Translations under genes and position numbers: made by a program
Source: Escherichia coli
GTDB taxonomy: Bacteria; Pseudomonadota; Gammaproteobacteria; Enterobacterales; Enterobacteriaceae
NCBI RefSeq assembly: GCF_030013595.1
Contig: NZ_CP122768.1
DNA: 64,000 nt
Reading direction: 5' to 3' (one strand)
Shown here: piece by piece, positions 28,100 through 60,020 of the stretch
Position numbering within the stretch: position 1 is the stretch's first letter
Layout: each line of letters begins with the position of its first letter
The notes under the pieces: model-generated
Told to the model about the DNA's origin: nothing
The model's input: only the letters and a program-made list of their open reading frames with translations
The model's database searches: none

Positions 28100-28336
28100 A
28101 AGTTATGGCTGTTCTGATACAGGAAAATAAACGTTCATTCTATGGTTACCTCTTCCTGTTATATAGAAGAATTTTAAACGACAAGTAAGGGAATATAAAT
28201 GAAAATAACAAAAAATAAAAATGCAACTATAAAAAACAGTCATCAGTCGGCTGCTTTTCAATGTTTACCTTATCATTTTCTGGTAATGCTGCCAACTTAC
28301 TGATTTAGTGTATGATGGTGATTTTAAGGTGCTTGC

Positions 28337-28612
28337 GTGGCTTCCATTTCCATCAGATGTCCTTCCTGCTCCGCTACTGAAGGCGTGGTGCGTAACGGCA
28401 AAAGCACTGCCGGACATCAGCGCTATCTCTGCTCTCATTGCCGTAAAACATGGCAACTACAGTTCACTTACACCGCCTCTCAGCCCGGTAAGCACCAGAA
28501 AATCATTGATATGGCCATGAATGGCGTCGGATGTCGCGCCAGTGCACGCATTATGGGCGTTGGCCTCAACACGGTTTTACGTCACTTAAAAAACTCAGGC
28601 CGCAGTCGGTAA
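28337..28612 (+). CDS. insA: IS1 InsA
   Basis: 91 aa [40 protein letters not shown]... zinc-finger protein. Confidence 0.9.
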
Positions 28613-29034
28613 CCTCGCGCATACAACCGGGCAGTGATGTGATTGTCTGCGCTGAAATGGACGAACAGTGGGGCTACGTCGGTGCTAAATCACGTCAGCG
28701 CTGGCTGTTTTACGCGTATGACAGGATACGGAGGACGGTTGTGGCGCACGTCTTCGGTGAACGCACTCTGGCCACACTGGAGCGTCTTCTGAGCCTGCTG
28801 TCGGCCTTTGAGGTCGTGGTATGGATGACGGATGGCTGGCCGCTGTATGAATCACGCCTGAAGGGAAAGCTGCACGTTATCAGCAAGCGTTACACTCAGC
28901 GCATTGAGCGACATAATCTGAATCTGAGACAACATCTGGCAAGGCTGGGACGGAAGTCACTGTCGTTCTCAAAATCGGTGGAGCTGCATGACAAGGTCAT
29001 CGGGCATTATCTGAACATAAAACACTATCAGTAA
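28531..29034 (+). CDS. insB: IS1 InsB (transposase frame; expressed as InsAB' by frameshift)
   Basis: 167-aa ORF overlapping insA in the -1 frame, classic IS1 arrangement. Confidence 0.9.
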
Positions 29035-29050
29035 GTTGGAGTCATTACCT

Positions 29051-29311
29051 GAGAATAATACCTCCTGGGTAAGTGAGCAGATACTTTCAGCGCCTCCGAA
29101 AGATGTAAATATTCGACTTGGAGTCGGTTCTTTAGAAGGTACAACCGTCTCACATGTTCAGCGATTGCATCATTCGTTAATCGCAGCTGGTTTGGAAAGT
29201 AACCTCACTGTCTATACCGGTGGTCACGATTATGCCTGGTGGCGCGGAGCAATTATTGATGAATTAGCAAATTATAATTGCAGGAAGGTATCAAATAATA
29301 ACTCTGTGTAA
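29051..29311 (+). pseudogene. C-terminal fragment of an alpha/beta-hydrolase esterase (Fes/IroD/IroE-like), truncated by IS1
   Basis: Open frame continues straight out of the IS1 right end; ...LTVYTGGHDYAWWRGAIIDELANY resembles enterochelin-esterase-family C-termini. Confidence 0.35.
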
Positions 29312-29452
29312 AATATCGTTTTATCGTCAGATAACTCTTTCTGCAATATTATTATGGGAGACTATCTCATTTATTTAGTGATGTCCTTCATTTATGTGAT
29401 GAAGGACATTATATTACTCATAACATTTCTCGTTGAAAATTTCAGCAATACG

Positions 29453-30577
29453 CTACAATTGTTTCCCGTTGTTTTTTAATTTTCTCATCAAAACCTCTGC
29501 AATCTCTGCAGGACTGGGTTGTTCAGCCATTTCAGCGGCTACCTGATCTGAACAGAAGCGTAGTGAATCATCATAAAGAAGGCGATTTACCAAATCACTG
29601 GTCAGTCCATGCTTGTCCGGAATAATCCCACACCCACGCTTCGCAACAATTTCTGCATTAACAGAGCGATCTGCACCTTCGCCAAACACAATCTGTGGTA
29701 TTCCACTATACAGCGCTGTCAGGGTATTACCTGCGCCACCGTGATGAATAAATCCATCAGCTCCATTAAGGAATACACCCATAGGTATCCAGTCAACCAG
29801 ACGTACATTTGATGGTAGTTTTCGTAAACCAGTACGAGCATTTATTGCAAGTTGCAAAATGATATCAGCATCAACTTCATTTGCAGAATCCATAACCCAT
29901 GAAATCAGCTCCAGACCATCAACCATTGGTTTTACAGTGCCAAGGCTGATAAGTAAACGTTTCCGATCAGAATCCCTGTCCCACCATGTTTCCTTTACAG
30001 CACCTCCGTTATAAGGAATATATCTCATTGAGATAACCGGTTCTCCAGCATTTTTAAGAATGCTCATACTTGGGGGAGCAACATCAATCCATGCTAAATC
30101 ACATAGTGGACCGCTGACTCCATGCCGCCTGTAAGCATTGCTTAAAGAACGGTTTAACATCTGAATATGGGCAGATGTATGCGCGAATCCAACAGCCAGC
30201 ATCACTGAAGGAATTCTATATTTAGCAGCAACCAATGGGCCTGCCGGATCAAGAGGGGGATAGACTATTAAATCTGGCCTCCATTTTCCTGCAAAATCGA
30301 TGAGGTTATCTGCCATTTCATCGCTAAAAAAAGAGAAATGACCAATAATATTACTTTTTTTCCTCAACTCTTCCTGATGGCGATATCCAGCCTCTGAATC
30401 TAAACCTGGAACTGCATCAAAAACAACCAGTCCAGCTTCTGCTGCTTTATTCGCGAATTTGCCAGCGCTACTAATTACTACATCATGTCCAATTACACGA
30501 AAGGCCTGAGCCAGAGAAATCAATGGGTATAACAAACCGTACAGCGGTGGGCCAATAAAAAGAATACGTTTTCGCAT
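29453..30577 (-). CDS. iroB: Enterobactin C-glucosyltransferase (salmochelin synthesis), orphan copy
   Basis: 374 aa; MRKRILFIGPPLYGLLYPLISLAQAFRVIGHDVVISSAGKFANKAAEAGLVVFDAVPGLDSEAGYRHQE... and GT-B C-terminus HHGGAGNTLTAL match my recollection of IroB along the whole length; no iroCDEN nearby. Confidence 0.8.
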   Translation of the reverse strand: MRKRILFIGPPLYGLLYPLISLAQAFRVIGHDVVISSAGKFANKAAEAGLVVFDAVPGLDSEAGYRHQEELRKKSNIIGHFSFFSDEMADNLIDFAGKWRPDLIVYPPLDPAGPLVAAKYRIPSVMLAVGFAHTSAHIQMLNRSLSNAYRRHGVSGPLCDLAWIDVAPPSMSILKNAGEPVISMRYIPYNGGAVKETWWDRDSDRKRLLISLGTVKPMVDGLELISWVMDSANEVDADIILQLAINARTGLRKLPSNVRLVDWIPMGVFLNGADGFIHHGGAGNTLTALYSGIPQIVFGEGADRSVNAEIVAKRGCGIIPDKHGLTSDLVNRLLYDDSLRFCSDQVAAEMAEQPSPAEIAEVLMRKLKNNGKQL

Positions 30578-31306
30578 TAAAAAAGTCCGTCTTCTGCTTA
30601 CCTGTTTATTTTTCTATCTCTAAGAAAACATAATTAATATTATTTTTATGTGAGCTTATGCACAAAAATAACCAAGTATATTATCTTCTGGTAGAGATTC
30701 AGGATACAGTTTGTAGGAGCTTTCTTTTTTGAACAATGATTTGCAGGACAGTTATGCTAAACTAGCGGAATCAGTATCACAACAATAAATGACTGATCAT
30801 ACCTGAAATTTGAATTAACAGGCATCATGAATGTCAATAGTCTAAGCGGTGACTACTTATATCGCTTGCATAAATACTAAACACTGACTAGAAAAGTATT
30901 GGATAACCCCGTCACTAAAAGTAACGCTTCGGTTATTTGCTCGGAATGTATTAACGCCAAGATTGTTAGCCGTTACGCCTTATATCACTGGCGCTGACAA
31001 ATGTTTCTTTTCTAATTTACTGAACCGGCGCAGACACGCAGGAAAGCACGCCGGCACCGGTGTAATGCCAGTTCTAATCAATAAGAATGGAATGACGAAT
31101 CAGTCAGGAAGGGATAACAACCCGCTGCTGAACGGAAGGTATCAGCAGGAAGATGAACGGGAATATCGCCAGCACCAAGGGCAGGGCCGGGTTCCACAAT
31201 ACCAGCGCTGGCATTTTGCACATTGCCAGCGTACCGGCATTACAACACGTTTCATGCTGCTGCCCCCCAGGATTCCTCGATTCGTTGCTACATCCACTGC
31301 TCTACT

Positions 31307-31504
31307 TCACTTCCACTGCTCCACTTCACTTTTGTACCAGCGGCTGCTGCGCCCCAGTTTGATGGGTTTAGGGAAATGGCCTTCACTGATCAACTTGTAA
31401 AACCATTTGTCGGTCATACCGGTGAAACTGGTGATATAGTTCATGTCGATCAGGGAATTATCGGCACGCAGAAATACGCTGTCGTGGCTTGTTGTAGTCA
31501 ACAT
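31307..31504 (-). CDS. AlpA-family phage regulatory protein (excisionase-like DNA binding)
   Basis: 65 aa; ...YKLISEGHFPKPIKLGRSSRWYKSEVEQW matches the AlpA motif (F-P-K-P-x-K-L-G...W...EV..W). Confidence 0.65.
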   Translation of the reverse strand: MLTTTSHDSVFLRADNSLIDMNYITSFTGMTDKWFYKLISEGHFPKPIKLGRSSRWYKSEVEQWK

Positions 31505-32989
31505 GGTCAGAATGTCCTGTGAGATTTATGAAGATTGTGCGAATGCGGGAAATCTACTGAGCTGTGCTTTCAGAACTGGCCTGTTACGGGATACCAGGGA
31601 TTACCGGCGGGGTAACGGGCTTCCGGATCATACACACCACGATTATCGCGGACAAAATCACTGAACGCCCATATCACCTCTTTAAGTATGTCTTCGCAGT
31701 CCGGTAAATGACGATCCAGCGCCACATCCCGGGTGGTACAGCTTTGATGCGCCCGGTGACACAAAGCCCGGATTGTTCCAGACATCCTGAATCAAACGCC
31801 CCAGATTAGGGGCGTCGAAATATGCCTCTCTGACCATTATATTCCGGCGTATAGGTAGCAGGTCTGAAGTGACAATGCGTCACCTGACGTTAAAAGTCAC
31901 CCAAGATGACCCCAGTGGGGGCAACAAGTATAAAACCGTTTTTTGATTAAGTGGTCGGATATGAAAAGGGGAAGGTTTATGTGAAAAATACCTGTGTTTT
32001 CTTTGAAAACACACAACAGTATCAGGTTATTTATGTTTATACAGTGCGTTCCAAACTGACCTGAATAATTACGCAAGTTGCAACAATAAAACATTTTTGC
32101 CGTAGTGTGAGGTACTCCGGTAAATTGCTTCCCAGGTGCAGACAATGACTAACGAAGAACTACAGGCAATCGCATTATCCATGCTTGAGCGCCAGCGCGA
32201 AAAAGTACACCAGCAACGAGAGTCTTTGCTTAACCCATCTCCATTCACCAGGCCAAAACGATTGGAGCTTGAAGCATTCTTGGACAAATACCCACGGCGG
32301 CTTAAATCAGGCAAAACCAGACCACCAGGCTGATAGCTCACAGTTTGTTCTCCGATTCAATAAAACGGATAAGAACCATCAGCGCGGTAGCGTAAGGCAC
32401 TACAGCGCATTGCTTTACGAGTAATAACAATGGATTTATCACCAGAAGACGCAAAGTTTTTACGAGAACTGCAACATCGTATGCTCAGAGAAGCCATTAT
32501 CGAACAGCAAACGGGCATGAGCGCCATAGACCCATTGCGATACAAACGGGCCTCATCTCCTTTAGTTGACGACAATTCCAATGCGGATAAAACACGTCCA
32601 CCACACTGATTACATTTTTCATTAGCACAGTGGTGTGATGCAGCATACGAGGAAAACCGGATGAATGAGAACAAAATAAAAAGGCTGGAGCAACTGTTAC
32701 AGGCACGCCAACGGGAGTTTGCCACTAAATGGGGACGTGCCGCGCTGCCACATGAACGCCTAACCTATTTTCCACTTGAAGACCTCATTAAAAATAATGG
32801 CAAAAAAATCAGGTCTGATAAGAAACACTTCTTAGAATGCAATGAAGACAAATAACAACAATCTGCATATTGCCACCAACCACAGATGTGGCATCGTTAT
32901 CAGCGCACTTGATTTTCTTTATATCCACTGACGAGTTTGCCGGTCATTCTGGTATCATGCAGATATTTACGGCGTACAAGCACACTAGC

Positions 32990-33540
32990 ATGACATTGTA
33001 ATAAGGCCTGAGCCTAACGCTTTAATGTGTGTCATACACTCAGTGGCGTAATCGTTGACAATATGGTGCATGTAATCGTAAGCGTCCAGCGAAATCCATC
33101 TGGTCATAATCTGAAGCATCCGACAAAGTGGTGTCCACCAAATAAGTGATCTGCGCCCAATATCCTGAGCCGGAACTTTGACAAAGGCCAACGAAAAATG
33201 GGAGCGGATGTTACAGAGTTCCCGGTACAGGGGAAAAGTGGTACCTGTCGCCAGTTCTCCGATCTGTTTAACCGGGAAATTATCTCCTACAGCTTGTCAG
33301 AAAGGTCGGTGATGGAGCATCGTTAATACGATGCTATACGATGCATTCACAGTGCCCGGCCAGAGGATGCCCCGTCGCTGCATATGGATCAGGGTTGGCA
33401 ATATCGAATTGCAGGCTATAGGCAAAGTTAAAGCCCCATGGAGTAGCACAAAATATGCCGCACAAAGGAAACGGTCTGAATAACGCAGTGATGAAGAACT
33501 TCTTCAGCACACTGCTAAAACGCATAGTGATCGAGCGCTG
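32990..33540 (-). pseudogene. IS3-family transposase debris (several frames, both strands)
   Basis: Plus-strand frame ends ...NGLNNAVMKNFFSTLLKRIVIER (IS3-family C-terminus) near 33530; other short transposase-like stretches nearby; no intact ORF. Confidence 0.4.
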
Positions 33541-36205
33541 ATTCTGGCGAACAACTGAACTAATACATCAGAATCTGCATTATGTTAAATAAATATAAAA
33601 AGATGGTTTAAATACCCCGTTACTTTTGACTTACACTATACGGTATCGCATCGTTTAATATTCGCACCGGCCAGATTTTTATTTCTATTAGTTGTCACAA
33701 TACTGAATGCGTACGACCACAGTATTCTGGCTCCTGTGTGGTTATGCTTTAATTCTGCGTTCCGGGCAGATAAGCAGTTGCTTGCAGGAATCCTTCTTGT
33801 GTTAATGTCAGTTCCCCTTTTACCAGTGCTGATTTCCACATTCCGTCCAACAGAGCTTATAGCCTTTCCCTGGATTATAGCATTGTCCGGCTGAAGTTCT
33901 TTTTGAATAATAATAGAAGCACTGCTGGCAGATCCAGTCCGTTTTTCATAACCCACTGTACTGATAACCATAATCTAATCAGTAGAAATTGAGTCGAAAA
34001 TAAGCACTACTCCATACAGGATAATTAGAGGTCAGTTTGATTATTCACAATTCATCATCAGCATTTTCTATTTCTGACGAAATCAATATGAAAATAACCA
34101 TATATGATAATTATTATAATAACGGCTTTAATTGGAATACATATATTACAACGTATTATATATAATTGGTATTCTGGGAACTATATTCTCAAAATACAGT
34201 AGAAACGAGGTATGTTTCTGGTGGAAAGGACAGTGGGATTAAAAAGTAAGAATTGATAAAAAAAACGCCAGCAACACATAGTGCCGGCGGAGGGAATACC
34301 CCATGGAGAAAATGTGATGCCTAGAGCATCATGAATATATAATTAAAAATAGTTAGCGTTGTCAATACTTTCACAAAAATAATTTTCGTAGTATAGAAAG
34401 ATATTTTTATGCATGACCTACCTGAATTTGCTCCGGGTAGAGGTTATAAATAAAAATTGAATCACGACAAACACAATATTCATAGTATGGCGATGCCTAC
34501 GCCAGCAAGAATAGCGCCAATAATATTGGGAATATAATAGACACCAGACGCACAGGCATCTCACTCCTTAACAAACAACAATCAGGATATTTACTTTTAC
34601 CAAGCTAACTGTTTACACCCAAAGTACACACAATTAACCATTCAATAACAAATGGCAATATCCATAGCCATACGACTTTACCTTGTAATGTTCGGTATTT
34701 CTTTATAATTATTCTGGGAAATCTAACATTTATTTTTAAAATCAAATTATCTTGTTGTTTAAAAATAAGTTCACATACTTTATCATCTTCTTCCGCCATC
34801 AACATCTCTGCATACTTAAACATTTCAGAACGTTCCTTTAGCACAGAAGAGTAATTATATGTCCAGTTCCCAGGCAATAATGCTTATGGATATTTAATTC
34901 ATAATTTAGAGAATATTTTGCAATAATATTTGGCAGTATTCAGAAATACCTGAAAAATCATACTATACAGCCCTAGGGAATGGATAAAGATTCTAACAAA
35001 GCATTTCAACAATATATACTTGTTAAAAATCCATATCGAAATGCCGTTGCAGCATTAATATATGCCTCATTCATAAAATGTAAAAGAGCAAGCTCGTACC
35101 AGTAGGGGGGAAATTCATTGACATGTCCTGTCAATACGTACAGAGCCCTGCCATGCTTGCCAGCACGTAACAATTCCGCCCCCAGTAACCAGCGTGTTCC
35201 CTGATTATTCTCAGGGTTATATGTTAGTATTTTATCAATGAGTATAACGGCATCCTGATGACGCTGTAAATGAACATTCGCCAGAATTGCAGCATAAAGA
35301 GCGCAAATGCATATGCCAGATGAGCGTGAATATCAATGATGTCAGGAGCATGTCAGGCAAGACGCCTGAGTTTGTTGACGTAATTTGTTTCGTTTATTTC
35401 ATCACTATCGTATGCGTCAAGAGTTTTTTCAAACTCATCCCGAAATGGGCCAAGCCTGGTTTCAGGAAATAAGAAATACCCTTGGTTATTGTTCACTTAA
35501 AAGTATAATTTGTAATTCAAATCCTGAGCCTGTAAAGCGGGGAGTAACATATTCTATTCTGAAGAGAATAAAAGTCGTGATGCGATGTATCAAGCCCGGA
35601 TTGTAATCCCAGATTAACATAGATCACAAAACAACTTATTCTTCACTAACGTCAAGATAAATATCGTTGTATGCCTTATCACGACTACGAATACCAGCAA
35701 GATACAACTGACATACGGAAAGATACCACGTTTTTTACTCCCGAAAATAACGCTAAAAAGCTACTTCCCCATCGTTTGTCCTTAGTATTGCCAGCGCCAA
35801 CAATGTGGGCTGACATGATAAAGCTGTCTAGGAAATTGTTCGCCTCCTCAGCGGACAATCCAAATGGTGATTGTCTCTGTTAAACGTTTATTTTGAAGGT
35901 CGACTGAATAAGGTGATGACGCTGTAGAATTTTTCACGTGCCACAGAATTTTGAACGCTTTCTCTTACAATATTTCAATGTTTCTATCAGTATTCGCCGG
36001 AAGAAGTCATCGACCAAATCATCCCAGTCGTCTCGCATCACTGACCATTCATGGTTGACATGTGGTGGAAATCCGCTTCTACAGTAACCATTTTTTATTC
36101 GCAAAACCGAACACGCCATACGGATAGCTGTTAACTGGCATGCCGAGGCAGTCGTTATTTATATTTGGTTTTGTCAATAATCTTTATTTTTTGTAAAAGG
36201 CAAAT

Positions 36206-36224
36206 ATAAATTATTCTCATTATT
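36206..36224 (+). promoter_or_regulatory. Candidate Fur box upstream of iha
   Basis: ATAAATTATTCTCATTATT matches the 19-bp Fur consensus GATAATGATAATCATTATC at roughly 12 positions by eye; ~50 bp upstream of the iha start. Confidence 0.4.
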
Positions 36225-36275
36225 GTTTGTATTTGTGTATTGTCTTGCCGGTTAACATGATCGGAGATTAGTAAT

Positions 36276-38366
36276 ATGCGAATAACCACTCTGGCTTCCG
36301 TAGTCATTCCCTGTCTCGGATTTTCAGCCAGCAGCATAGCTGCTGCAGAGGATGTGATGATTGTCTCGGCATCCGGCTATGAGAAAAAGCTGACTAACGC
36401 AGCCGCCAGTGTTTCTGTGATTAGCCAGGAGGAATTGCAGTCCAGCCAGTACCACGATCTGGCGGAGGCTCTGAGATCAGTAGAGGGTGTGGATGTTGAA
36501 AGTGGTACGGGTAAAACCGGAGGGCTGGAAATCAGCATCCGAGGAATGCCAGCCAGTTACACGCTGATACTGATTGATGGTGTTCGTCAGGGCGGAAGCA
36601 GTGACGTGACTCCCAACGGTTTTTCTGCCATGAATACCGGGTTCATGCCCCCTCTGGCCGCCATTGAGCGTATTGAGGTTATCAGGGGGCCGATGTCCAC
36701 ACTGTATGGCTCTGATGCGATGGGCGGTGTGGTGAATATCATTACCAGAAAGAATGCAGACAAATGGCTCTCTTCCGTCAATGCAGGGCTGAATCTGCAG
36801 GAAAGCAACAAATGGGGTAACAGCAGCCAGTTTAATTTCTGGAGCAGTGGTCCCCTTGTGGATGATTCTGTCAGCCTGCAGGTACGCGGTAGCACACAAC
36901 AGCGTCAGGGTTCATCGGTCACATCACTGAGCGATACAGCAGCCACGCGTATTCCTTATCCCACGGAGTCACAGAATTATAATCTTGGTGCACGTCTTGA
37001 CTGGAAGGCGTCGGAGCAGGATGTGCTCTGGTTTGATATGGATACCACCCGGCAGCGTTATGATAACCGGGATGGGCAACTGGGGAGTCTGACGGGGGGA
37101 TATGACCGGACCCTGCGCTATGAGCGAAACAAAATTTCAGCTGGCTATGATCATACTTTCACCTTCGGAACATGGAAATCGTATCTGAACTGGAACGAGA
37201 CAGAAAATAAAGGTCGTGAGCTTGTACGCAGTGTACTGAAGCGCGACAAATGGGGGCTTGCCGGTCAGCCGCGGGAGCTTAAGGAATCGAACCTTATCCT
37301 GAATTCATTACTGCTTACCCCTCTGGGAGAATCTCATCTGGTTACGGTGGGGGGCGAGTTTCAGAGCTCGTCCATGAAAGACGGAGTTGTCCTTGCCAGC
37401 ACAGGTGAAACTTTCCGGCAGAAAAGCTGGTCGGTATTTGCTGAGGATGAGTGGCATCTCACGGATGCACTTGCGCTGACTGCGGGCAGCCGCTATGAAC
37501 ATCATGAGCAATTCGGGGGACACTTCAGTCCGCGTGCATATCTGGTCTGGGATGTGGCAGATGCCTGGACGCTGAAAGGCGGTGTGACCACGGGATATAA
37601 GGCACCCAGAATGGGGCAGCTACATAAAGGGATTAGTGGTGTGTCCGGGCAGGGAAAAACAAATCTACTTGGTAACCCCGACCTGAAGCCGGAAGAGAGC
37701 GTCAGTTATGAGGCTGGGGTGTATTACGATAACCCCGCCGGTCTGAATGCCAATGTCACAGGTTTTATGACTGACTTCTCCAACAAGATTGTCTCTTATT
37801 CCATAAATGATAACACCAATAGCTATGTAAACAGCGGAAAGGCCCGGTTGCACGGTGTGGAATTTGCCGGCACATTGCCGCTGTGGTCAGAGGATGTCAC
37901 GCTGTCACTGAATTACACCTGGACCCGAAGTGAACAACGTGATGGTGATAACAAAGGTGCGCCGCTGAGTTATACCCCTGAACACATGGTGAATGCGAAA
38001 CTGAACTGGCAGATCACCGAAGAGGTGGCATCATGGCTGGGTGCCCGTTATCGCGGGAAAACACCACGTTTCACCCAGAATTATTCGTCACTGAGCGCTG
38101 TACAGAAGAAAGTGTATGATGAGAAAGGAGAATACCTGAAAGCCTGGACGGTGGTGGATGCAGGTCTGTCGTGGAAGATGACGGATGCCCTGACGCTGAA
38201 TGCTGCGGTGAATAACCTGCTCAACAAGGATTACAGTGACGTGAGCCTGTACAGTGCCGGTAAGAGTACGCTGTATGCCGGTGATTACTTCCAGACGGGA
38301 TCATCAACAACAGGATATGTGATACCTGAGCGAAATTACTGGATGTCGCTGAACTATCAGTTCTGA
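36276..38366 (+). CDS. iha: TonB-dependent outer-membrane siderophore receptor / adhesin (IrgA homologue adhesin)
   Basis: 696 aa; signal peptide; plug-domain and 22-strand barrel features; C-terminal ...YWMSLNYQF aromatic end; length and sequence match recalled Iha. Confidence 0.8.
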   Translation: MRITTLASVVIPCLGFSASSIAAAEDVMIVSASGYEKKLTNAAASVSVISQEELQSSQYHDLAEALRSVEGVDVESGTGKTGGLEISIRGMPASYTLILIDGVRQGGSSDVTPNGFSAMNTGFMPPLAAIERIEVIRGPMSTLYGSDAMGGVVNIITRKNADKWLSSVNAGLNLQESNKWGNSSQFNFWSSGPLVDDSVSLQVRGSTQQRQGSSVTSLSDTAATRIPYPTESQNYNLGARLDWKASEQDVLWFDMDTTRQRYDNRDGQLGSLTGGYDRTLRYERNKISAGYDHTFTFGTWKSYLNWNETENKGRELVRSVLKRDKWGLAGQPRELKESNLILNSLLLTPLGESHLVTVGGEFQSSSMKDGVVLASTGETFRQKSWSVFAEDEWHLTDALALTAGSRYEHHEQFGGHFSPRAYLVWDVADAWTLKGGVTTGYKAPRMGQLHKGISGVSGQGKTNLLGNPDLKPEESVSYEAGVYYDNPAGLNANVTGFMTDFSNKIVSYSINDNTNSYVNSGKARLHGVEFAGTLPLWSEDVTLSLNYTWTRSEQRDGDNKGAPLSYTPEHMVNAKLNWQITEEVASWLGARYRGKTPRFTQNYSSLSAVQKKVYDEKGEYLKAWTVVDAGLSWKMTDALTLNAAVNNLLNKDYSDVSLYSAGKSTLYAGDYFQTGSSTTGYVIPERNYWMSLNYQF

Positions 38367-38395
38367 TAATAACAAAACGCTATCACTGACGGTAG

Positions 38396-38440
38396 AATAC
38401 GTTGCCACTGCAACTCCTGGCGGAACAGTGGCAACGTATT
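38396..38440 (+). terminator. 15-bp perfect inverted repeat 30 bp after iha stop (stem-loop, no T-tract)
   Basis: AATACGTTGCCACTG - 15 nt loop - CAGTGGCAACGTATT. Confidence 0.5.
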
Positions 38441-39266: not shown

Positions 39267-39646
39267 ATTAACTCTCCTGATTTTTGATTATTATTAATGC
39301 GCAGCGTTTATATATGTTCCCTAGGCTTAGTTCTGGACGCTGGATATTCGGTGAGGCGTAAATATGGTATGACACCATTTTTCATAACGCTGAAGTTTCT
39401 ATACCTGTTGAATTTGAATTTTCATTGACCGGGTATCTTATTTTCCAGGGCCCGTTCCTTCATAAGTCGCAAAAGTAACATATATCCGAAGGGCATGCTG
39501 TTGATATCAGACACGGAATACTGGCTTTAACCAGCAACCACAGATAAACCCGGGGCCTGCATAAAAGGTTCATGCCAGAATTAACATAGCTCTGCTTTCT
39601 GCCCCCCCCTTTCCCATATTCACCCGTTGATAGCGGATCGATACCC

Positions 39647-49574: not shown

Positions 49575-49584
49575 GGAAATCATA

Positions 49585-50793: not shown

Positions 50794-50810
50794 GCAGGCT
50801 AAATCTTACG

Positions 50811-51278: not shown

Positions 51279-51360
51279 CGCTAAATCTCAGACCGGGGTG
51301 AAAACTCCGGTTTTGTCATATTTCACCTCTGTATTGGCGTGATGCAAAATGGCATCTGAA

Positions 51361-51447
51361 TCGATCATGGTTTGGCATCCATTTCCGATCACAGTTTGGC
51401 ATCACAATCGATCACGATTTGGCATGCTTCCGCTCATTGATTGGCAT
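51361..51447 (+). repeat. Array of four ~20-bp direct repeats with core TTTGGCAT (iteron-like)
   Basis: TCGATCATGGTTTGGCATCC / CCGATCACAGTTTGGCATCA / TCGATCACGATTTGGCATGC / CTCATTGATTGGCATCC, unevenly spaced (~12 to ~34 bp between cores), between terW-like stop and the IS66 orf1. Confidence 0.6.
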
Positions 51448-51538
51448 CCTGGTGTCGTTACGGGGAAGTCATCTTCACAGGGATCTTCAGTCAGTTAGCA
51501 TTACCGACATCCATTCACCAACTTACCGGAGATAATCA

Positions 51539-51868
51539 ATGTCAAAACCCCGATGGACGCTTGATCAGAAAAAACATCACGTTGCCGCATGGCGCGCCAG
51601 CGGCCTTACCCGTGAACAGTACTGTGAACTTTACGACATTCCGTTTAAATCCCTGCGCCAGTGGCCGCAGGATGTCGCAAAAGCCGAAAAACGAGCCAGA
51701 GCACCAGAAATTATTCCTGTTTCAGTATCTGGCTCTTCCGGAATGACTGATGGCAGACCATTGTCGGATGAGCCTGTCACTCTCTTCCTGCCCGGTGGTA
51801 TCCGGATGTGCTGCCAGCCTTCTCAGTTAACCGATGTTTTCCGGGCTCTTCGCCATGCTGACGCCTGA
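51539..51868 (+). CDS. IS66-family accessory protein orf1 (outer copy)
   Basis: 109 aa MSKPRWTLDQKKHHVAAWRASGLTREQYCELYDIPFKSLRQW (HTH). Confidence 0.65.
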   Translation: MSKPRWTLDQKKHHVAAWRASGLTREQYCELYDIPFKSLRQWPQDVAKAEKRARAPEIIPVSVSGSSGMTDGRPLSDEPVTLFLPGGIRMCCQPSQLTDVFRALRHADA

Positions 51869-52235
51869 TAACGTATTCCTGGTCGTAAAACCCGTCGATA
51901 TGCGCCGGGGTATCGACACACTGACACAGTACGTCCAGAACGAACTTAACGCTGCATGGCATGACGGTGCTGCTTTTGTCTTCACCAATAAAGTCCGCTC
52001 CCGCATAAAAGTTCTCCGGTGGGACAAACATGGCGTATGGCTGTGTACCCGACGACTGCACCGGGGAAGCTTCCGCTGGCCCCGGAAAGGTGATGCCACA
52101 TGGCATCTCACACAGGATGAGTTTCACTGGCTGGTCTTTGGGGTTGACTGGCAACAGGTGAAAGGGCATGACCTGGCAAAATGGGTATACCAGGAAGAAC
52201 CCGAAGATGCTCAGAGCAACGCAATAACTCAATGA
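51834..52235 (+). CDS. IS66-family TnpB-like orf2 (outer copy)
   Basis: ...LVVKPVDMRRGIDTL...VLRWDKHGVWLCTRRLHRGSFRWP parallels other IS66 orf2 copies. Confidence 0.65.
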   Translation: MFSGLFAMLTPDNVFLVVKPVDMRRGIDTLTQYVQNELNAAWHDGAAFVFTNKVRSRIKVLRWDKHGVWLCTRRLHRGSFRWPRKGDATWHLTQDEFHWLVFGVDWQQVKGHDLAKWVYQEEPEDAQSNAITQ

Positions 52236-52277
52236 AATATAATGAATATCCATGCGTGATGTCATATAATCCACCGC

Positions 52278-53108
52278 ATGGATATCTCGCTTCTCAGTAC
52301 CACCAGTGACCCTGAACAGCTTCGCGCTCTGGCAATTGCCATGGTGCAAAAAGTCATGGCTGAGAATGCAGAACTTCAGAACCGTATCCGCATCCTGGAA
52401 GAGCAGATGAAGCTCGCACGCCAGCAGCGTTTCGGTAAAAAATGCGAATCGCTGGCCGGGATGCAGCGTTCCCTGTTCGAAGAGGATGTTGACGCGGATA
52501 TCGCAGAAATCTCGGCGCATCTGGACAAACTGCTTCCTCAGACCGGGGACGAAGAAAAAACAACAACACGTCCTGTTCGTAAGCCCTTGCCTTCACCTCT
52601 TCCCCGTGCTGAAAAGGTTATCCCGCCAGCTGAGGAACGTTGTCCTGACTGTGATGCCCCCCTGCACTTCATTCGCGATGAAGTCAGCGAGAAGCTGGAA
52701 TATATTCCGGCACAGGTCGTGGTCAACCGCTATATCCGCCCGCAGTACAGCTGTCCCTGCTGTGAGAAAGTGTTCAGCGGAAAAATGCCGGCACATATCC
52801 TTCCGAAAAGTGCTGTTGAGCCATCGGTCATCGCACAGGTTGTCATCAGCAAATATACCGACCATCTGCCCCTGTATCGCCAGCAGCACATTTTCTCCCG
52901 AATGGGGGTGGAGCTCCCCGTCAGTACAATGGCGGATATGGTCGGTGTTGCTGGCGCTGCACTGGCCCCGCTGGCAAAATTGTTACGCCACGAGCTTCTG
53001 ACACGGGATGTTATTCATGCAGATGAAACGTCCCTGAGGCTCCTTGATACCCGGAAAGGCGGTAAATCCTGCTCCGGCTGGCTGTGGGCTTACGTCAGCG
53101 GAGAAAGA
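52278..53108 (+). pseudogene. IS66-family transposase TnpC, N-terminal part (interrupted by nested IS66)
   Basis: Cys-rich region CPDCDA...CPCCEK; reading frame runs into the nested element's terminal repeat at 53109. Confidence 0.7.
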
Positions 53109-53138
53109 GTAAGCGTCAACGGAGCACCGTATTGACGC

Positions 53139-54752
53139 TTATTTATTGGTGAGTACTACGTTCCATGGCAGGAGTTCATCAACTCGGTTGGAAGGCCATT
53201 CTGGCAGTACGCTCAGGATATGGCGCAGATACGCTTCCGGATCGATACCGTTCAGACGGCAGGTGCCGATCAGCCCGTACAACAGTGCTCCACGCTCGCC
53301 GCCGTGATCGCTGCCAAAGAACATAAAGTTTTTCTTTCCGAGACAGACTGCACGAAGCGCTCTTTCCGCAGCATTATTATCCGCCTCCGCCAGACCGTCA
53401 TCACTGTAATAACAGAGGGCATCCCACTGATTCAGTACATAGCTGCACGCTTCGCCCAGTCTGGATTTTTTCGACAGCGTACCATTCTTCTCCACCATCC
53501 ATTCATGCAGTGACGTCAGTAACACTTTGCTTCGCTGCTGCCTGACGGCAAGACGCTCTGACTCCGGTAATCCCCGTATTTCATCCTCGATGGCGTACAG
53601 TTCACTGATTCGCTTCAGGGCTTCTTCTGCCGTCGCACTTTTGCTGCTGATGTATACATCGTGGATTTTTCGCCGGGCATGGGCCCAGCACGCAACTTCT
53701 GTCAGTGCACCACCTTCACGTTCTGCACTGAACAGCCGATCGTAACCGCTGAACGCATCCGCCTGCAGGATACCCCGGAAGGGACGAAGGTGTTGTACCG
53801 GATGTTTTCCCTGCCTGTCTGGTGAGTAGGCGAACCAGACCGCCGGTGGCTCTGATGAGCCCGCATTCCGGTCATCCCGGACATACGTCCAGATGCGTCC
53901 TGTTTTTGCCTTTTTTCTGCCCGGTGCCAGCACTTTTACTGGTGTGTCGTCAGTGTGAACCTTGCGGGTGTTCATCACGTAACGGTACAGGGTATCATTC
54001 AGCAGAGTCATTAACTGACAACATGCGTCAACCCAGTTGGAGAGTAATGCCCGGCTCAGTTCGATGCCCTGGCGGGCAAAGATTTCACTCTGACGATACA
54101 GTGGCAGGTGTTCGCAGTATTTTCCCGTTAACACGCGGGCAAGTAATCCGGAGCCCGCGATGCCGCGCTCTATCGGGCGGGACGGCGCTGGCGCTTCAAC
54201 TATACAGTCACATTTTGTACAGGCTTTTTTTACCCGAACAGTGCGGATCACTTTCAGGGCGCTACTCACCAGTTCCAGCTGCTCAGCACTGACTTCCCCC
54301 AGATAATCCAGCTCACTGCCACACTCCGGGCAACAACTTTCTTCAGGCTCCAGACGGTGTATTTCACGGGGAAGATGTGCCGGTAACGGACGACGATGAC
54401 GTGACTGTCGCAACTGGCGGGGAACCTGCGGGTCATCCTCACGCCCACTGTAACGATCGCTTTCCTGTTCGCGTTGTTTCAGTTGGGCCTCAGCCTGTTC
54501 AACCTCACGCTGCAGTTTTTCAGAACGGGTACCGAACAACATCCGGCGCAGTTTTTCTATCTGGGCCCTCAGATGTTCTATTTCCCGCTCCTCCTCTTCG
54601 ATCTTTTCCTCGGCACGTGCCAGTGCAGAGCGCAGGAAGGCCTCCGTCTCTTCAACCAGACTCAGTTGCTGATCTTTCTGACGGAGGGCTTCAGCCTGCT
54701 CAGAGAGCAGCCTTTCCAGCTCAGTGATACGAATGAGGTATTTCCGACTCAT
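53139..54752 (-). CDS. IS66-family transposase TnpC (nested copy)
   Basis: 537 aa; CPECGSEL...CTKCDC zinc-finger-like region; DDE region. Confidence 0.85.
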   Translation of the reverse strand: MSRKYLIRITELERLLSEQAEALRQKDQQLSLVEETEAFLRSALARAEEKIEEEEREIEHLRAQIEKLRRMLFGTRSEKLQREVEQAEAQLKQREQESDRYSGREDDPQVPRQLRQSRHRRPLPAHLPREIHRLEPEESCCPECGSELDYLGEVSAEQLELVSSALKVIRTVRVKKACTKCDCIVEAPAPSRPIERGIAGSGLLARVLTGKYCEHLPLYRQSEIFARQGIELSRALLSNWVDACCQLMTLLNDTLYRYVMNTRKVHTDDTPVKVLAPGRKKAKTGRIWTYVRDDRNAGSSEPPAVWFAYSPDRQGKHPVQHLRPFRGILQADAFSGYDRLFSAEREGGALTEVACWAHARRKIHDVYISSKSATAEEALKRISELYAIEDEIRGLPESERLAVRQQRSKVLLTSLHEWMVEKNGTLSKKSRLGEACSYVLNQWDALCYYSDDGLAEADNNAAERALRAVCLGKKNFMFFGSDHGGERGALLYGLIGTCRLNGIDPEAYLRHILSVLPEWPSNRVDELLPWNVVLTNK

Positions 54753-54782
54753 GACCGTTTTTATAATCCGGCCATGACATTT

Positions 54783-55133
54783 TTACAACATTGTCAGTGC
54801 ATTAAGGCGGGATGTTTTGGGCTGACGCCAGTCCAGTTTATCGAGGAGCATTGCCAGCTGCGAGCGGGTAATGGATACCTTACCGTCACGCACCGCAGGC
54901 CAGATAAACTGGCCTTCCTCCAGACGTTTGGTGAACAGGCACAGACCATCAGCATCAGCCCACAGAATTTTAATCGTGTCACCCCGTCGGCCGCGAAAGA
55001 TAAACAGGTGACCGGAGAAGGGGTTCTCATCCAGCACATGTTGTACCTGTTCTCCCAGACCGTTGAAGGATTTACGCATATCAGTAACGCCGGCAACCAG
55101 CCAGATTCGAGTGCCTGATGGGAGCGAGATCAT
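54783..55133 (-). CDS. IS66-family TnpB-like orf2 (nested copy)
   Basis: 116 aa MISLPSGTRIWLVAGVTDMRKSFNGL... Confidence 0.8.
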   Translation of the reverse strand: MISLPSGTRIWLVAGVTDMRKSFNGLGEQVQHVLDENPFSGHLFIFRGRRGDTIKILWADADGLCLFTKRLEEGQFIWPAVRDGKVSITRSQLAMLLDKLDWRQPKTSRLNALTML

Positions 55134-55555
55134 CGTCCCCTCCCGGTCAGTTCACGGATCAACACCGTGAGCAGCTCTGGTGAAGGATTTTCCAGCGTCA
55201 TGTTACCGTGGCGGAACTCAACTTTACAGGAACTGGCACTGACTGTGCTTTGTGAAGGAGTGGATAAAAGCGGAGTAAGAGCCGCCATAGGCTCTTTCTG
55301 CTCATCAGGCGTTATCTCAACAGGTAATAATTCAACGCCAGCGCCAGAAGAGGTTGTTACCGGAAGACGCCGCGATATACGCCTTTCGTTCTGCCAGAGC
55401 CTGAGCCATTTGAACAGGAGGTTATCATTGATATCGTGTTCCCGGGCAATACGGGCAACAGAGGCTCCTGGTTGTGAAGCCAGTTTAACCATTTGAAGTT
55501 TAAACTCATTTGAAAATGATCTGCGGGGTTCTGAGGATAATATTTTCTGTTCCAT
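55130..55555 (-). CDS. IS66-family accessory protein orf1 (nested copy)
   Basis: 141 aa, near-identical to 15953-16378. Confidence 0.8.
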   Translation of the reverse strand: MEQKILSSEPRRSFSNEFKLQMVKLASQPGASVARIAREHDINDNLLFKWLRLWQNERRISRRLPVTTSSGAGVELLPVEITPDEQKEPMAALTPLLSTPSQSTVSASSCKVEFRHGNMTLENPSPELLTVLIRELTGRGR

Positions 55556-55649
55556 AACAGGTGTCCACTAGTTGAAAAGGTGGGCACCTACGTTACCAAT
55601 ACTGGCTTAATGGCTACATACGGCGGTCAGTTTACGCTTACGAGAAAGA

Positions 55650-56360
55650 AGCGGTCCGCCGGTCGTCTGTTTTGACTCGCAGACCGGACGGGCCCTCAGA
55701 TATCCTGAGGCCTGGCTGCAGGGCTGGTGTGGCGGTACGCTGGTGAGTGACGGATACAGCGTGTACAAATCTCTGGCGGATAATGACCCCGGTATTACAT
55801 CTGCCTGTTGCTGGAGCCACGCAAGGCGCGGTTTCGCAAATCTGTATAAGGCCAGCAGGGAGCCCCGTGCAGCCATGGCGCTGAGAAAAATCGCGGGTCT
55901 TTATCGCATTGAGAAGTTCATCCGTGAACGTCCTGTGGAAAAAATACGGCAATGGCGACAACGGTATTCCCGGCCGATAGTGAATGACCTGTTTGCCTGG
56001 CCTGAAGAGCAGGAGCCGTGCTGTCCGCCCGACGGACCACTAAACAAAGCGATTAATTATATCCTGAACCGGCGCGATGAACTGAGCTGCTTCCTGAGTG
56101 ACGGAGCCGTGCCCCTGGACAACAATATCTGCGAGCGTGCTATCCGCCCGGTGGTCATGGGGCGGAAAGCATGGTTATTCGCCGGTTCACTGATGGCCGG
56201 GAACCGCGCGGCACAGATAATGAGCCTTCTGGAAACGGCAAAACGTAATGGTCTGGAGCCGCATGCCTGGCTGACAGACGTTCTGACGCGTCTACCGGAG
56301 TGGCCGGAAGACCGACTGGAAGAGTTGCTGCCCCTTGAGGGATTTACCTTCTCCGGATGA
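55650..56360 (+). pseudogene. IS66-family transposase TnpC, C-terminal part (outer copy, resumes after nested IS)
   Basis: ...CWSHARRGFANLYKA...LPEWPEDRLEELLPL is the conserved TnpC C-terminus; track ORF 55743-56360. Confidence 0.7.
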
Positions 56361-56570
56361 GTGATACCTGCCATCAGGTGTTCGTGCAGCGGGCCATAAC
56401 CCGCAGTCGGGAGTTGAACGCCTGACGACAGGAAATGAGCCAGAGCAGCGACCACGCGGGCTGACAGTGAGTCAGAACCTGAATCAGCCCGGAGCCATTC
56501 CCGGGGCTGTACTTCATCACCTGCCATCAGTACCCGTGTCAGTACTTCGCGACCTGACGCAATTACCCGA

Positions 56571-56870
56571 CTCAGTTCTTCAGAACCCGCCTCCGATACC
56601 AGCCTGGCGGTCGCCCCTGTGCAACAAAATAAATCAACCATCGTCAGACGGTGATCAATCGTATGCGCTGCCAGTGGCTCGCCTGAAAAATGCGTCAATA
56701 TGAGTTCGCCGGAACAATACCTCAGTTCTTCAGAACCCGCCTCCGATACCAGCCTGGCGGTCGCCCCGGCGCAACAGAATAAATCAACCATCGTCAGACT
56801 GCGATCATTCGTATGCATCGCTGATGATGCGCCCGAAAAACGCGTCAATATGAGTTCGCCGGAATATTAC
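56571..56870 (+). repeat. Tandem direct duplication, 2 x ~150 bp, ~85-90% identical by eye
   Basis: Unit begins CTCAGTTCTTCAGAACCCGCCTCCGATACCAGCCTGGCGGTCGCCCC... at 56571 and again at 56721. Confidence 0.8.
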
Positions 56871-57243
56871 TGACGACACGGTTTGTAGTTACGTTCCTTC
56901 GGTGAGTGAGTACCTGTGCGTCAGGGTAACGCAATCAGTTCAGGTTTAGCGGGGTGTCAAGTCGGTTTGGCTAACCGACCGCAGAATTAACTGTACCTTT
57001 AAAGGTCGCCCCCGATATATCTGCCTGTCAGACATATCGCCGATTCGGTATCTCACTACATAAAACTCCTTAAAAAACAATGCGATTCTGTTGGTACGAA
57101 GCTTTCAGTAAGTCAGTCCGGAGAAGCGCCAGTACGATACAGAATGAGGTTGAAAAAAACGTTCACGTCTGGTCACTTCTTCAAATGTTAAAAAACATCT
57201 CGTAAAGAGCCAGTTTATGCGGGTTCGTTGAGTAGACGTGCGA

Positions 57244-57282
57244 GCGTCACTTTGTCAGCTTTAACGCTGACGAAAGTGACGC
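57244..57282 (+). repeat. Near-perfect 16-bp inverted repeat with 6-nt loop (strong stem-loop) in a ~1-kb ORF-free region
   Basis: GCGTCACTTTGTCAGC - TTTAAC - GCTGACGAAAGTGACGC (one bulged G). Confidence 0.6.
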
Positions 57283-57582
57283 CCGCACAGCTTCAAACTC
57301 CACATGCACACGCAAGCGACCAAATTTCAAATGGTCTTATGCCGTGCGCACAGTCATAAGAAGCGCATGCGGAAAGTCAGAAAATATCTTAAGACGCAGA
57401 TTTTAAAGGCGTTTTTATGCCAGTCTGCCGGGAATACACAGTAGTCCGGTTGTCCGGAAGCACCACGGTAATCCGAAGGAAAAATCAACGTACCTCAATC
57501 ACCGTAGTGATATCCGTTCCCAGAGGCTAAACGGATGTACCACCATAAAGGCATCCTCTTTCAGGCTACGAGGATATTGCAA

Positions 57583-57671
57583 TCACCCGAAGGCGTTTCT
57601 CTCAGATTGCTGAAACATTGGCTGGCAGTCACCCGAAGGCGTCCCTCTCAGACTGCTGGAACATTGGCTGG
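57583..57671 (+). repeat. Tandem direct repeat, 2 x 43 bp separated by 3 bp
   Basis: TCACCCGAAGGCGTTTCTCTCAGATTGCTGAAACATTGGCTGG / TCACCCGAAGGCGTCCCTCTCAGACTGCTGGAACATTGGCTGG. Confidence 0.8.
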
Positions 57672-57826
57672 TCGCAAAAGCGACAGTTAATGCAAATACA
57701 GGTTAACAAAAAGGGAAATCTGCCGTCAACCCAACCATATGAACATGTTGATTTCATTATGAATGTGATGTTCTAATATAAATTAATCAGTAACTTCATA
57801 AAAAGAATATAAGAAACAGATAATGC

Positions 57827-58564
57827 ATGTATTTACACACATATCAGCACAATGATAGATTACCACCCCAGAAACACGATAAAGGTATAATTATGGAATT
57901 TTCCGTTATTTTTTTCTGGGTTATCACTGGTCTTATTACCATCTTATTCTTAAAATCAATAATAACCGATCTAATAAAAAACCTAAACAAAACAGACATA
58001 GCGTTATATATATTGGCATTTTTATCAGCCGGATATACATTCCAGTATATTTACAATGACAATATATTTTCAGAACTATGGGGAGTTGGCCTGTTTGTTA
58101 CTCTGATAGTACTGAATATAGTATTTAATCTCTTTTTTAGACTCTTATTCATTCTCTCGAAAATGATATTAATGTCACGACATATAAGAAAGATGCAAAA
58201 AAAACTAAAACAGACGTCTGTGCCTGATTTTATTTATTATTCAATAGAAAAACACAACAAATATCCCATATATGTATTACACATGCCATCAAACAATATA
58301 ATTGAAATAGGCTACAATATAATAAACACCGATCTGGTCATTGGCGAAAAAATTCATTTCAGGACACTAAGCAATCGTTCTTTATATTTTAACCTCACCC
58401 AACCCCCATTAATCGCGACAATAAAAGATGATGTGTTTTGCACTCTTCATGATTACTATAACCACAATAATGAAACGAAATCCACTATTGACAATTACAT
58501 ATCAAAAATAAAGGATAATCATAATACCCCATGGTTATTAAACAACGAAAATGTTCAGGAATAA
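57827..58564 (+). CDS. Hypothetical membrane protein in very AT-rich DNA
   Basis: 245-aa ORF with several hydrophobic helices; start may be the internal Met (MEFSVIFFWV); extreme AT-bias makes a chance ORF less likely but not excluded. Confidence 0.35.
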   Translation: MYLHTYQHNDRLPPQKHDKGIIMEFSVIFFWVITGLITILFLKSIITDLIKNLNKTDIALYILAFLSAGYTFQYIYNDNIFSELWGVGLFVTLIVLNIVFNLFFRLLFILSKMILMSRHIRKMQKKLKQTSVPDFIYYSIEKHNKYPIYVLHMPSNNIIEIGYNIINTDLVIGEKIHFRTLSNRSLYFNLTQPPLIATIKDDVFCTLHDYYNHNNETKSTIDNYISKIKDNHNTPWLLNNENVQE

Positions 58565-58716
58565 AAAAAGAGACAATTCCCGAGATAAAACAAAAGAGCA
58601 TAAACATATGAACCGGAAATTCTATTTCAAAAATATCCTGTGGGGAATGTGCCCCATTATAATATCCATATTGCATCTGATATATGACACACCAACAGAA
58701 GGGTAATGACTCCAAC

Positions 58717-59220
58717 TTACTGATAGTGTTTTATGTTCAGATAATGCCCGATGACCTTGTCATGCAGCTCCACCGATTTTGAGAACGACAGTGACTTCCG
58801 TCCCAGCCTTGCCAGATGTTGTCTCAGATTCAGGTTATGCCGCTCAATGCGCTGAGTATAACGCTTGCTGATAACGTGCAGCTTTCCCTTCAGGCGTGAT
58901 TCATACAGCGGCCAGCCATCCGTCATCCATACCACGACCTCAAAGGCCGACAGCAGGCTCAGAAGACGCTCCAGTGTGGCCAGAGTGCGTTCACCGAAGA
59001 CGTGCGCCACAACCGTCCTCCGCATCCTGTCATACGCGTAAAACAGCCAGCGCTGACGTGATTTAGCACCGACGTAGCCCCACTGTTCGTCCATTTCAGC
59101 GCAGACAATCACATCACTGCCCGGTTGTATGCGCGAGGTTACCGACTGCGGCCTGAGTTTTTTAAGTGGCGGAAAATCGTGTTGAGGCCAACGCCAATAA
59201 TGCGTGCACTGGCGCGACAT
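58717..59220 (-). CDS. insB: IS1 InsB (transposase frame)
   Basis: 167 aa, near-identical to copy A InsB. Confidence 0.9.
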
Positions 59221-59414
59221 CCGACGCCATTCATGGCCATATCAATGATTTTCTGGTGCGTACCGGGCTGAGAGGCGGCGTAAGTGAACTGTAGTTGCCA
59301 TGTTTTACGGCAGTGAGAGCAGAGATAGCGCTGATGTCCGGCGGTGCTTTTGCCGTTACGCACCACCCCGTCAGTAGCTGAACAGGAGGGACAGCTGATA
59401 GAAACAGAAGCCAC
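59139..59414 (-). CDS. insA: IS1 InsA
   Basis: 91 aa, near-identical to copy A InsA. Confidence 0.9.
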
Positions 59415-60020
59415 TGGAGCACCTCAAAAACACCATCATACACTAAATCAGTAAGTTGGCAGCATCACCAACAGAAGCATCGATAAAAGTTGACTTATTT
59501 CTGATACTCAGTGGCCTGGCCCTTCCTTGTTCAATATACCTGACAAAAACAATCACACTAAAATACACATCCATATCATTCTGGAAAAAACCTCTTTTCT
59601 GGTCTTATGGTATATATCATTTTCATCTTGTTTATATAATGACATGTATAGTTTTAGCAATACCTTCTGCAATTATCGTTTTATTCTTTCACTTTTATCA
59701 AAACATCACCAGAAACTGGAAGTGACAACCGCAATAATGAACATAAAAAGGCAAATCAGAATGGCAGTAAATCAATAAAGTACCATTTCATATGAATCAT
59801 CAGAAAAACGGTGGACGCGACATCCAGCACGAGGCAAAACACAGCAACAAAATAAGCCGGATATCGCGCCCTGTACTTTTCTAACTCAACTCCCGGCATT
59901 GTGCAAGTTTTAATCGCAGGTGGATTCAGAGCCACGCCCCCATTGATTCAGCCTGAAGACACGTATATCCTTGGAGAAAGCAGGAATCTCATTGCTGTGA
60001 AATTCCTTACAGAATCTTCA

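Follow-up and report, generated by a model that had tools for sequence, protein, structure and literature searches.

Two copies of the insertion sequence IS1 lie in inverted orientation on either side of iha and the tellurite resistance (ter) operon in the stretch of Escherichia coli DNA analyzed here (64,000 nt of contig NZ_CP122768.1, assembly GCF_030013595.1; hereafter the window). Such a layout raises the question of whether the two copies, A and B, arrived together as the ends of a composite transposon or mark separate events, and which genes were lost at copy A, whose flanks are unrelated to each other. Comparison with related genomes leads us to an account that we regard as very probable as a whole: copy A would mark a deletion made by IS1 in a decayed microcin H47 (mch) islet, and copy B would have been inserted later and independently. 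The initial annotation, made from the sequence alone, had placed the two copies exactly; each is 768 bp long, and 29,652 nt lie between them.

28282–29049, plus strand: IS1 copy A, an IS1F-like isoform, with its right inverted repeat (IRR) on the left and its left inverted repeat (IRL) on the right; no target duplication. The insA frame occupies 28337–28612, and the insB' frame extends to 29034.
58702–59469, minus strand: IS1 copy B, of an isoform frequent in E. coli from pigs; simple insertion specific to this strain.

The window belongs to a tellurite resistance, iha and urease island of the SpLE1 or O-island (OI) 43/48 type, and is near-identical to the island of the pig enterotoxigenic E. 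coli (ETEC) strain ETEC1747. The two sequences are 99.98% identical over positions 1–58701 and 100% identical over 59470–64000, and copy B is the sole structural difference between them.

A deletion joint in a microcin H47 gene cluster

Four genes or gene remnants surround copy A:

27642–28100, plus strand: hypothetical gene (152 aa); where microcin H47 clusters are intact, it adjoins the CPBP gene.
28199–28281, plus strand: 5′ remnant (83 nt, frameshifted) of a CPBP-family intramembrane protease gene, annotated as partial CPBP by the Prokaryotic Genome Annotation Pipeline (PGAP).
29051–29311, plus strand: 3′ remnant of mchS1, an enterobactin-esterase homologue (last 86 of 424 codons and the stop codon).
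29453–30577, minus strand: mchA, intact (374 aa), an enterobactin C-glycosyltransferase homologue of IroB/MceC with EryCIII-like N- and C-terminal domains.

The 9-bp sequences flanking copy A (left, TCATTTTCT; right, TGAGAATAA) do not match, and no target duplication is present, as annotated initially. On the left, in a flank to which the initial annotation had given no identity, the alignment of the CPBP remnant to the intact 228-aa gene of strains STEC2018-607 (record L012), FORC_069 (L016) and UPEC_U013 ends exactly at position 28281. On the right, the esterase remnant matches the enterochelin esterase model over positions 341–409 of 418, and the Pfam Esterase family at the C-terminus. The earlier statement that copy A cuts an esterase-like gene thus stands, and the cut lies at a deletion joint, with 83 nt of the CPBP gene on one side and 86 esterase codons on the other.

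In genomes with a complete cluster, the two sides of this joint lie 10.7 kb apart. Window positions 26050–28281 align to positions 3483–5715 of the STEC2018-607 record, and positions 29050–30142 align to positions 16401–17493 of the same record. The left flank ends 83 nt into the CPBP gene and is 96.2% identical to STEC2018-607, 96.8% to FORC_069, and 93.3% to UPEC_U013. The right flank is 99.5% identical at the nucleotide level to mchS1-mchA of STEC2018-607 (from 16401 onward) and 98.6–99.5% identical to mch clusters annotated with mchB, mchI, mchS3, and mchF. Both flanks are collinear with the intact H47 clusters of UPEC_U013, 20KM2228, and STEC2018-607, strand and order being preserved. The missing segment was measured in two of the records:

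STEC2018-607 (L012), 5716–16400: 10,685 bp missing from the window.
FORC_069 (L016): 11,460 bp, or 10,683 bp net of its own IS1A copy and the accompanying 9-bp duplication.

The deletion comprises codons 29–228 of the CPBP gene, an open reading frame (ORF) of 107 aa, mchF, mchE, mchD, mchC, mchB, mchI, mchS3, and codons 1–337 of mchS1. Its right breakpoint is ambiguous by 1 nt (mchS1 codon 337/338), as a C is common to the IS1 end and mchS1. The microcin and immunity genes and those for maturation (mchCD) and export (mchEF) all lie inside the 10,685-bp deleted segment; therefore no microcin can be made, and the locus is a non-functional remnant. The most telling comparison is with FORC_069, which shares the same island backbone over at least 9 kb on either side (genes for a phosphoadenosine phosphosulfate (PAPS) reductase and an AAA protein to the left, iha to the right) and holds a complete cluster in between. 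FORC_069 represents the undeleted, ancestor-like state of the island.

The identity of the affected genes was derived from four mch clusters (UPEC_U013, 20KM2228, STEC2018-607, and FORC_069). Their order is CPBP gene, 107-aa ORF, mchF, a HlyD-family gene (mchE), an acyltransferase gene (mchD), a 516-aa gene (mchC), mchB, mchI, mchS3, the esterase gene (mchS1), and the glycosyltransferase gene (mchA). This order agrees with the published H47 system, in which mchA is the homologue of iroB and mchS1 the homologue of iroD (PMC7472721, PMC6776366). The glycosyltransferase of the window is identical in 373 of 374 residues to that of the cat isolate 20KM2228 (L009), which carries an intact microcin H47 cluster. 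On these sequence grounds, the glycosyltransferase gene is mchA and the esterase remnant is mchS1. The CPBP-family gene, whose intact product matches CPBP families, stands at the mchF-distal end of the cluster and by this position is probably mcmM. The 152-aa hypothetical gene next to it is annotated in ETEC1747 and in O157:H7 strain NE122, and has homologues at the same position in STEC2018-607, FORC_069, and UPEC_U013; domain and family searches yielded no family match for it.

The initial annotation had read the same genes as the rest of a salmochelin locus, with iroB orphaned by an IS1 that removed iroC, iroD, iroE, and iroN. A true homology lies behind this reading: the glycosyltransferase is 71% identical to IroB of strain Nissle at the amino acid level (68.5% for iroB at the nucleotide level), full-length MchS1 is 57% identical to IroD, and partial IroD proteins match the esterase remnant at about 63–70%. 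When the 86-aa remnant itself was used in a protein search, only short partial proteins were returned. These values are nevertheless far below the 98.6–99.7% identity (nucleotide or amino acid) that links the remnant to mchA and mchS1. The esterase and glycosyltransferase genes are convergent in the window, as they are in the mch clusters, whereas the Nissle iroA locus has iroB, iroC, iroD, and iroE on a single strand. Nothing resembling iroC or iroE is found among the genes at the remnant, and there is no trace of iroN. Finally, copy A is flanked on its left by the CPBP end of an mch cluster, and relatives with an intact cluster hold mch rather than iro genes between the breakpoints. Gene identity, gene orientation, and the content of intact relatives together refute the salmochelin locus as the source, and we give this reading practically no credence.

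A search with the esterase also led to a related, siderophore-microcin-type cluster in another enterobacterial genome and in metagenome contigs (L003, GCA_051306995.1, CP195522.1, positions 1–11610; and L002, L004–L007). This cluster contains genes for a C39-peptidase ABC exporter, a HlyD-like protein, a HlyC-like acyltransferase, and a 516-aa protein. Its esterase and glycosyltransferase genes are convergent and about 76.7% identical to the pair in the window at the nucleotide level; a split or a frameshift interrupts the esterase gene, upstream of which there are divergent IS1-family fragments. The cluster gave the first hint of a microcin context; it does not give the ancestral state.

The remnant is bracketed by a pair of imperfect direct repeats (family D5):

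27148–27190, no strand assigned: left islet direct repeat, imperfect (attL-like core).
30907–30949, no strand assigned: right islet direct repeat, imperfect (attR-like core).

The 43-nt cores of the two copies are 84% identical. The core sequence GCTTCGGTTATTTGC occurs exactly twice in the window and exactly twice in each of the STEC2018-607 and FORC_069 records, where the spacing is about 13.68 kb after subtraction of their own IS1 copies. The H47 genomic island has been described as 13 kb long, with extensive imperfect direct repeats on both sides (Azpiroz et al. 2011, PMC3191183) and with published att sequences of 148 and 144 bp (PMC3191183). The locus could thus be described as an islet inside an island: a microcin H47 genomic island that would have decayed while its flanking repeats were kept, its interior being reduced to about 3 kb and one IS1, compared with about 13.7 kb originally.

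The same scar is widespread. With a 5.5-kb query comprising copy A and both flanks, and a minimum of 80% coverage in one place, the region was found in 485 of 5,426 complete E. coli genomes. The best 30 of these 485 records matched over the full length at about 100% identity, and carriers include O157:H7, O145:H28, O103, O111, and porcine ETEC. The junction without IS1 (100-nt query) had no match in the 5,426 genomes; a local positive control showed that such a joint is detectable and not lost to masking of low-complexity sequence. Hence, none of these genomes contradicts the initial annotation by carrying the junctions of copy A without IS1. The scar has a single origin common to the 485 genomes and can serve as a shared marker of this island family. 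The glycosyltransferase gene and partial esterase gene beside IS1 in SpLE1-type islands of O157:H7, other E. coli that produce Shiga toxin (STEC), and ETEC are all that is left of a microcin H47 islet.

Origin of the deletion at copy A

IS1 makes adjacent deletions without target duplication, and because of this property we consider intramolecular transposition of IS1 to be, on balance, the probable cause of the deletion. In this scheme, IS1 would have entered one breakpoint first; its later intramolecular transposition into the second would have excised the intervening DNA. The product would be what is seen at copy A: one IS1 without target duplication that marks a single 10,685-bp deletion and leaves only mchA intact. 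The event would have occurred once, before the island spread among enterohemorrhagic (EHEC), atypical enteropathogenic (aEPEC), and enterotoxigenic lineages. Of the initial proposal that copy A mediated an adjacent deletion, the deletion itself is thus retained, with its joint at copy A, and the proposed content is replaced, mch genes having been lost instead of iro genes.

A possible but rather unlikely route to the same product is homologous recombination of an IS1 in the CPBP gene with a second, directly repeated copy in mchS1, which would leave a single and possibly hybrid IS1 with non-matching flanks, namely a half of each of the two earlier duplications. This route gains some plausibility from the fact that mch clusters have been struck repeatedly by IS1 (in mchA of STEC2018-607, and in FORC_069, cM8a, and CU42ET-1). 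Copy A also has a mosaic look in comparison with copy B, since 13 of their 27 differences fall within the first 96 nt. However, the A-type isoform, with the same left end, is present at unrelated loci in many copies of 99.0–99.5% identity; therefore the mosaic was not created at this locus, and we rejected it as a sign of recombination between IS1 copies. The two-copy route further requires two insertions and a recombination event, compared with one insertion and one transposition, and among complete E. coli genomes none with IS1 at either exact breakpoint was found. Insertion of IS1 into a pre-existing deletion joint is disfavored because the target duplication is missing.

One point weighs against our own account of IS1-mediated decay of an H47 islet. 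Among complete E. coli genomes, no IS1 with a target duplication was found at either breakpoint in the same IS1 orientation. The search for such intermediates used a composite query (5′ part of mchS1, copy A, and 3′ part of the CPBP gene), in which an IS1 at either breakpoint of an otherwise intact gene corresponds to 74% coverage. Matches with this coverage did occur, but they spanned 1,662–2,261 bp instead of the expected 1,168 bp; given the extra spacing, they represent independent IS1 insertions nearby and not intermediates. The equivalence of the D5 repeats to the published attL and attR is putative and is based on position and spacing, just as the name mcmM for the CPBP gene is based on position.

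Bases next to the left breakpoint deserve mention. In intact clusters the breakpoint is followed by ATTACC (L012 5716–5721), or by CATTACC in UPEC_U013, and these bases are identical to the last 6–7 nt of the IRL end of IS1 (window positions 29044–29049). This could be chance. IS1 targets resemble the ends of the element according to an old report, which may account for the match.

The mchS1-mchA end of H47 clusters has received repeated, independent insertions of insertion sequences. STEC2018-607 has an IS1 in mchA (L012 17494–18261) with a 9-bp duplication, and FORC_069 an IS1A upstream of mchS1 (L016 20002–20769) with the 9-bp duplication AACAGCGGC. IS3-family elements lie in or beside mchS1 in two further records (L008, about 10268–11496; L009, about 5889–7117). 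At the other end of the cluster, cM8a and CU42ET-1 have an IS1 beside the CPBP gene. Another IS1F-like copy of FORC_069 (L016 917–1686; 98.6% identical to copy A, with an internal stop) truncates a ParB-like gene at a point homologous to window position 18936; the A-type isoform has therefore been active elsewhere in the island family.

Copy B and the IS1 pair as a whole

Copy B is a recent and strain-specific insertion, and a simple one, as the initial annotation had proposed from its target duplication:

58694–58701, no strand assigned: left target duplication of copy B, AACAGAAG; the octamer is single in the empty site of ETEC1747.
59470–59477, no strand assigned: right target duplication of copy B, AACAGAAG; exact over 8 bp.

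The empty site of ETEC1747 (NZ_CP122722.1) reads ACACCAACAGAAGCATCG and contains AACAGAAG only once; therefore the repeat at copy B is a true 8-bp target duplication. The reconstructed empty site of 3,025 nt differs from ETEC1747 at one position. In none of the 5,426 complete E. coli genomes was an IS1 found at this site, and the best matches to the site query spanned 3,025–3,026 bp, i.e. the query minus 768 and minus 8. The insertion is intergenic, 137 bp downstream of a hypothetical coding sequence and upstream of hok/gef. Copies 100% identical to B are present elsewhere, on chromosomes and plasmids of pig-derived strains (UMNF18, O139:H1, and O141:H4), which fits recent transposition in a porcine ETEC-like host. 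Copy B represents a much later event unrelated to copy A, in which a different IS1 isoform entered intergenic DNA in this strain only. As a strain-specific marker it is usable for typing. Just upstream of copy B, in non-coding DNA and debris of IS66-family elements, there are two tandem duplications (56571–56870, 2 × 150 nt, 87%; 57579–57670, 2 × 46 nt, 89%).

In their anatomy both copies are typical members of the IS1 family. Their terminal inverted repeats are of the IS1 type, imperfect, and start with GGTRATG; the two ends match at 23–24 of 35 positions, with the identities mostly in about the outermost 23 nt. Frames for insA (91 aa) and insB' (167 aa) are present in both, as is the A6C motif of programmed −1 frameshifting (TTAAAAAAC, TTAAAAAACTC). 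The PGAP label 'IS1 family transposase, programmed frameshift' is given in other genomes to the copy A element and to elements with the sequence of copy B. Past the ends of the elements, the inverted repeat appears to extend for another 24 nt; with 13 of 24 matches in AT-rich DNA, we rejected this extension as chance.

Of the 768 positions, 27 distinguish copy A from copy B (96.5% identity), and the two share perfect-match runs of up to 164 bp. With this many differences, neither is a recent duplicate of the other. Identity to an IS1A copy is 91% for A and 93% for B, so that neither is of the K-12 IS1A type; in related records, copy A is annotated as IS1F-like.

Seen in isolation, the pair resembles a transposon of the Tn1681 type, in which inverted IS1 copies would have brought in the iha/ter segment as a unit: two full-length elements with intact outer ends bracket 29.6 kb including iha and the ter operon. 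Against such an origin, the outer flanks of the pair, TCATTTTCT and AACAGAAGC, show no duplication, while copy B has one of its own. Genomes without copy B are collinear with the window both between the two copies and on either side of them; copy A and the cargo occur without copy B in the 485 genomes carrying the scar, and the site of copy B is occupied in none of those searched. The two copies also belong to different isoforms. A composite origin is therefore refuted, as the initial annotation had anticipated, and hardly any probability remains for it. The inverted orientation of A and B might also reflect a single intramolecular replicative transposition of IS1 of the inversion type. Such an event should leave two copies of the same sequence, invert the DNA between them, and create no direct duplication around either. 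The copies differ at 27 positions, however, the DNA between them is collinear, and copy B has a perfect direct duplication; these facts refute this origin and make it even less credible than the composite one. The composite-like appearance is a coincidence of two independent events, an IS1-associated deletion at copy A and a simple insertion at copy B. Both outer ends of the pair are intact IRR-type ends. The inverted copies could invert the iha-ter segment in the future or conceivably mobilize it.

The surviving mchA gene, the island, and known systems

mchA is intact in the island copies inspected, with the same protein accession in O157:H7 NE122 and ETEC1747. It keeps its upstream region and lies about 6 kb from iha, a catecholate-siderophore receptor gene. 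The island protein differs from the intact-cluster copy by one substitution, G110D. MchA and IroB both have glycine at this residue, and the change may indicate that constraint on the orphan gene has relaxed. No iroA locus was found in the examined stretches of the genomes with inspected island copies. We consider it improbable that the orphan MchA acts as an IroB-like enzyme that C-glucosylates enterobactin. If it did, EHEC and ETEC would gain a salmochelin-like siderophore that evades lipocalin-2. The converse substitution has been described in Nissle, where IroB stands in for the missing McmL (PMC7472721). Upstream of mchA, the best match to a Fur box comprised 13 of 19 positions, too weak to use.

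As annotated in those regions of ETEC1747 and O157:H7 NE122 that are collinear with the island, iha, the ter operon, and the urease genes follow a conserved order. The left part of the NE122 island (L001 7065–18715) contains a two-partner secretion module of the contact-dependent growth inhibition (CDI)/filamentous-hemagglutinin kind, and darTG in a type I restriction-modification locus. At about 7000–24800, the window and ETEC1747 instead contain cah, a dynamin-like gene, IS66 copies, the PAPS reductase gene, and a large AAA-domain gene. Diverged repeats at 15883–16463 and 55060–55641, and at 13470–13788 and 54816–55134 (84–87% direct, 71% inverted), correspond to distinct elements and fragments of the IS66 family that are dispersed in the island.

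All components of this locus belong to known kinds, namely IS1, an IS1-associated deletion, decay of an H47 islet, and a ter island of the SpLE1 type, and the elements are annotated in hundreds of public genomes. Existing knowledge of IS1 and of SpLE1-type islands is not changed. The main value of the analysis lies in the corrected annotation and in the identification of an ancestor-like, undeleted island. Our literature search found no paper describing an mch remnant in SpLE1-type islands.

With regard to the IS1 family, both copies share length, inverted repeats, insA/insB', and the A6C site, and show nothing unusual. Like the IS1 composites Tn9 and Tn1681, the window has two IS1 copies bracketing a cargo, in an inverted layout as in Tn1681; unlike them, its pair lacks a common duplication, consists of differing isoforms, and has a second copy that is absent in all relatives. 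The iroA locus (iroBCDE-iroN) shares homologous enzymes with the remnant at the levels of identity given above, but these are paralogous and not orthologous, their orientation differs, and the flanks in the window belong to an mch cluster. Closer is the likeness to SpLE1/OI-43/48, or the tellurite- and adherence-conferring island (TAI), of O157:H7 and other STEC, which has iha, terZABCDEF/terW, urease genes, and IS66-family debris (PMC8193136), and which carries the IS1 scar of copy A at identical junctions; the window differs by its extra IS1 (copy B) and by a left part that is the ETEC1747/FORC_069 variant.

The remnant itself compares best with the H47 genomic island, with which it shares the same genes (98.6–99.7% identity), the convergent mchS1 and mchA, probably the flanking imperfect direct repeats, the nesting in a larger island, and decay through the activity of insertion sequences. 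Truncated forms of the H47 system are known from Nissle, CFT073, and 536; Nissle-type clusters are without mcmL/mchA and mcmK/mchS1 and have kept the microcin, immunity, and export genes (PMC7472721). The remnant in the window is the mirror image of the Nissle/CFT073 truncation, with only mchA and the stubs of mchS1 and the CPBP gene left.

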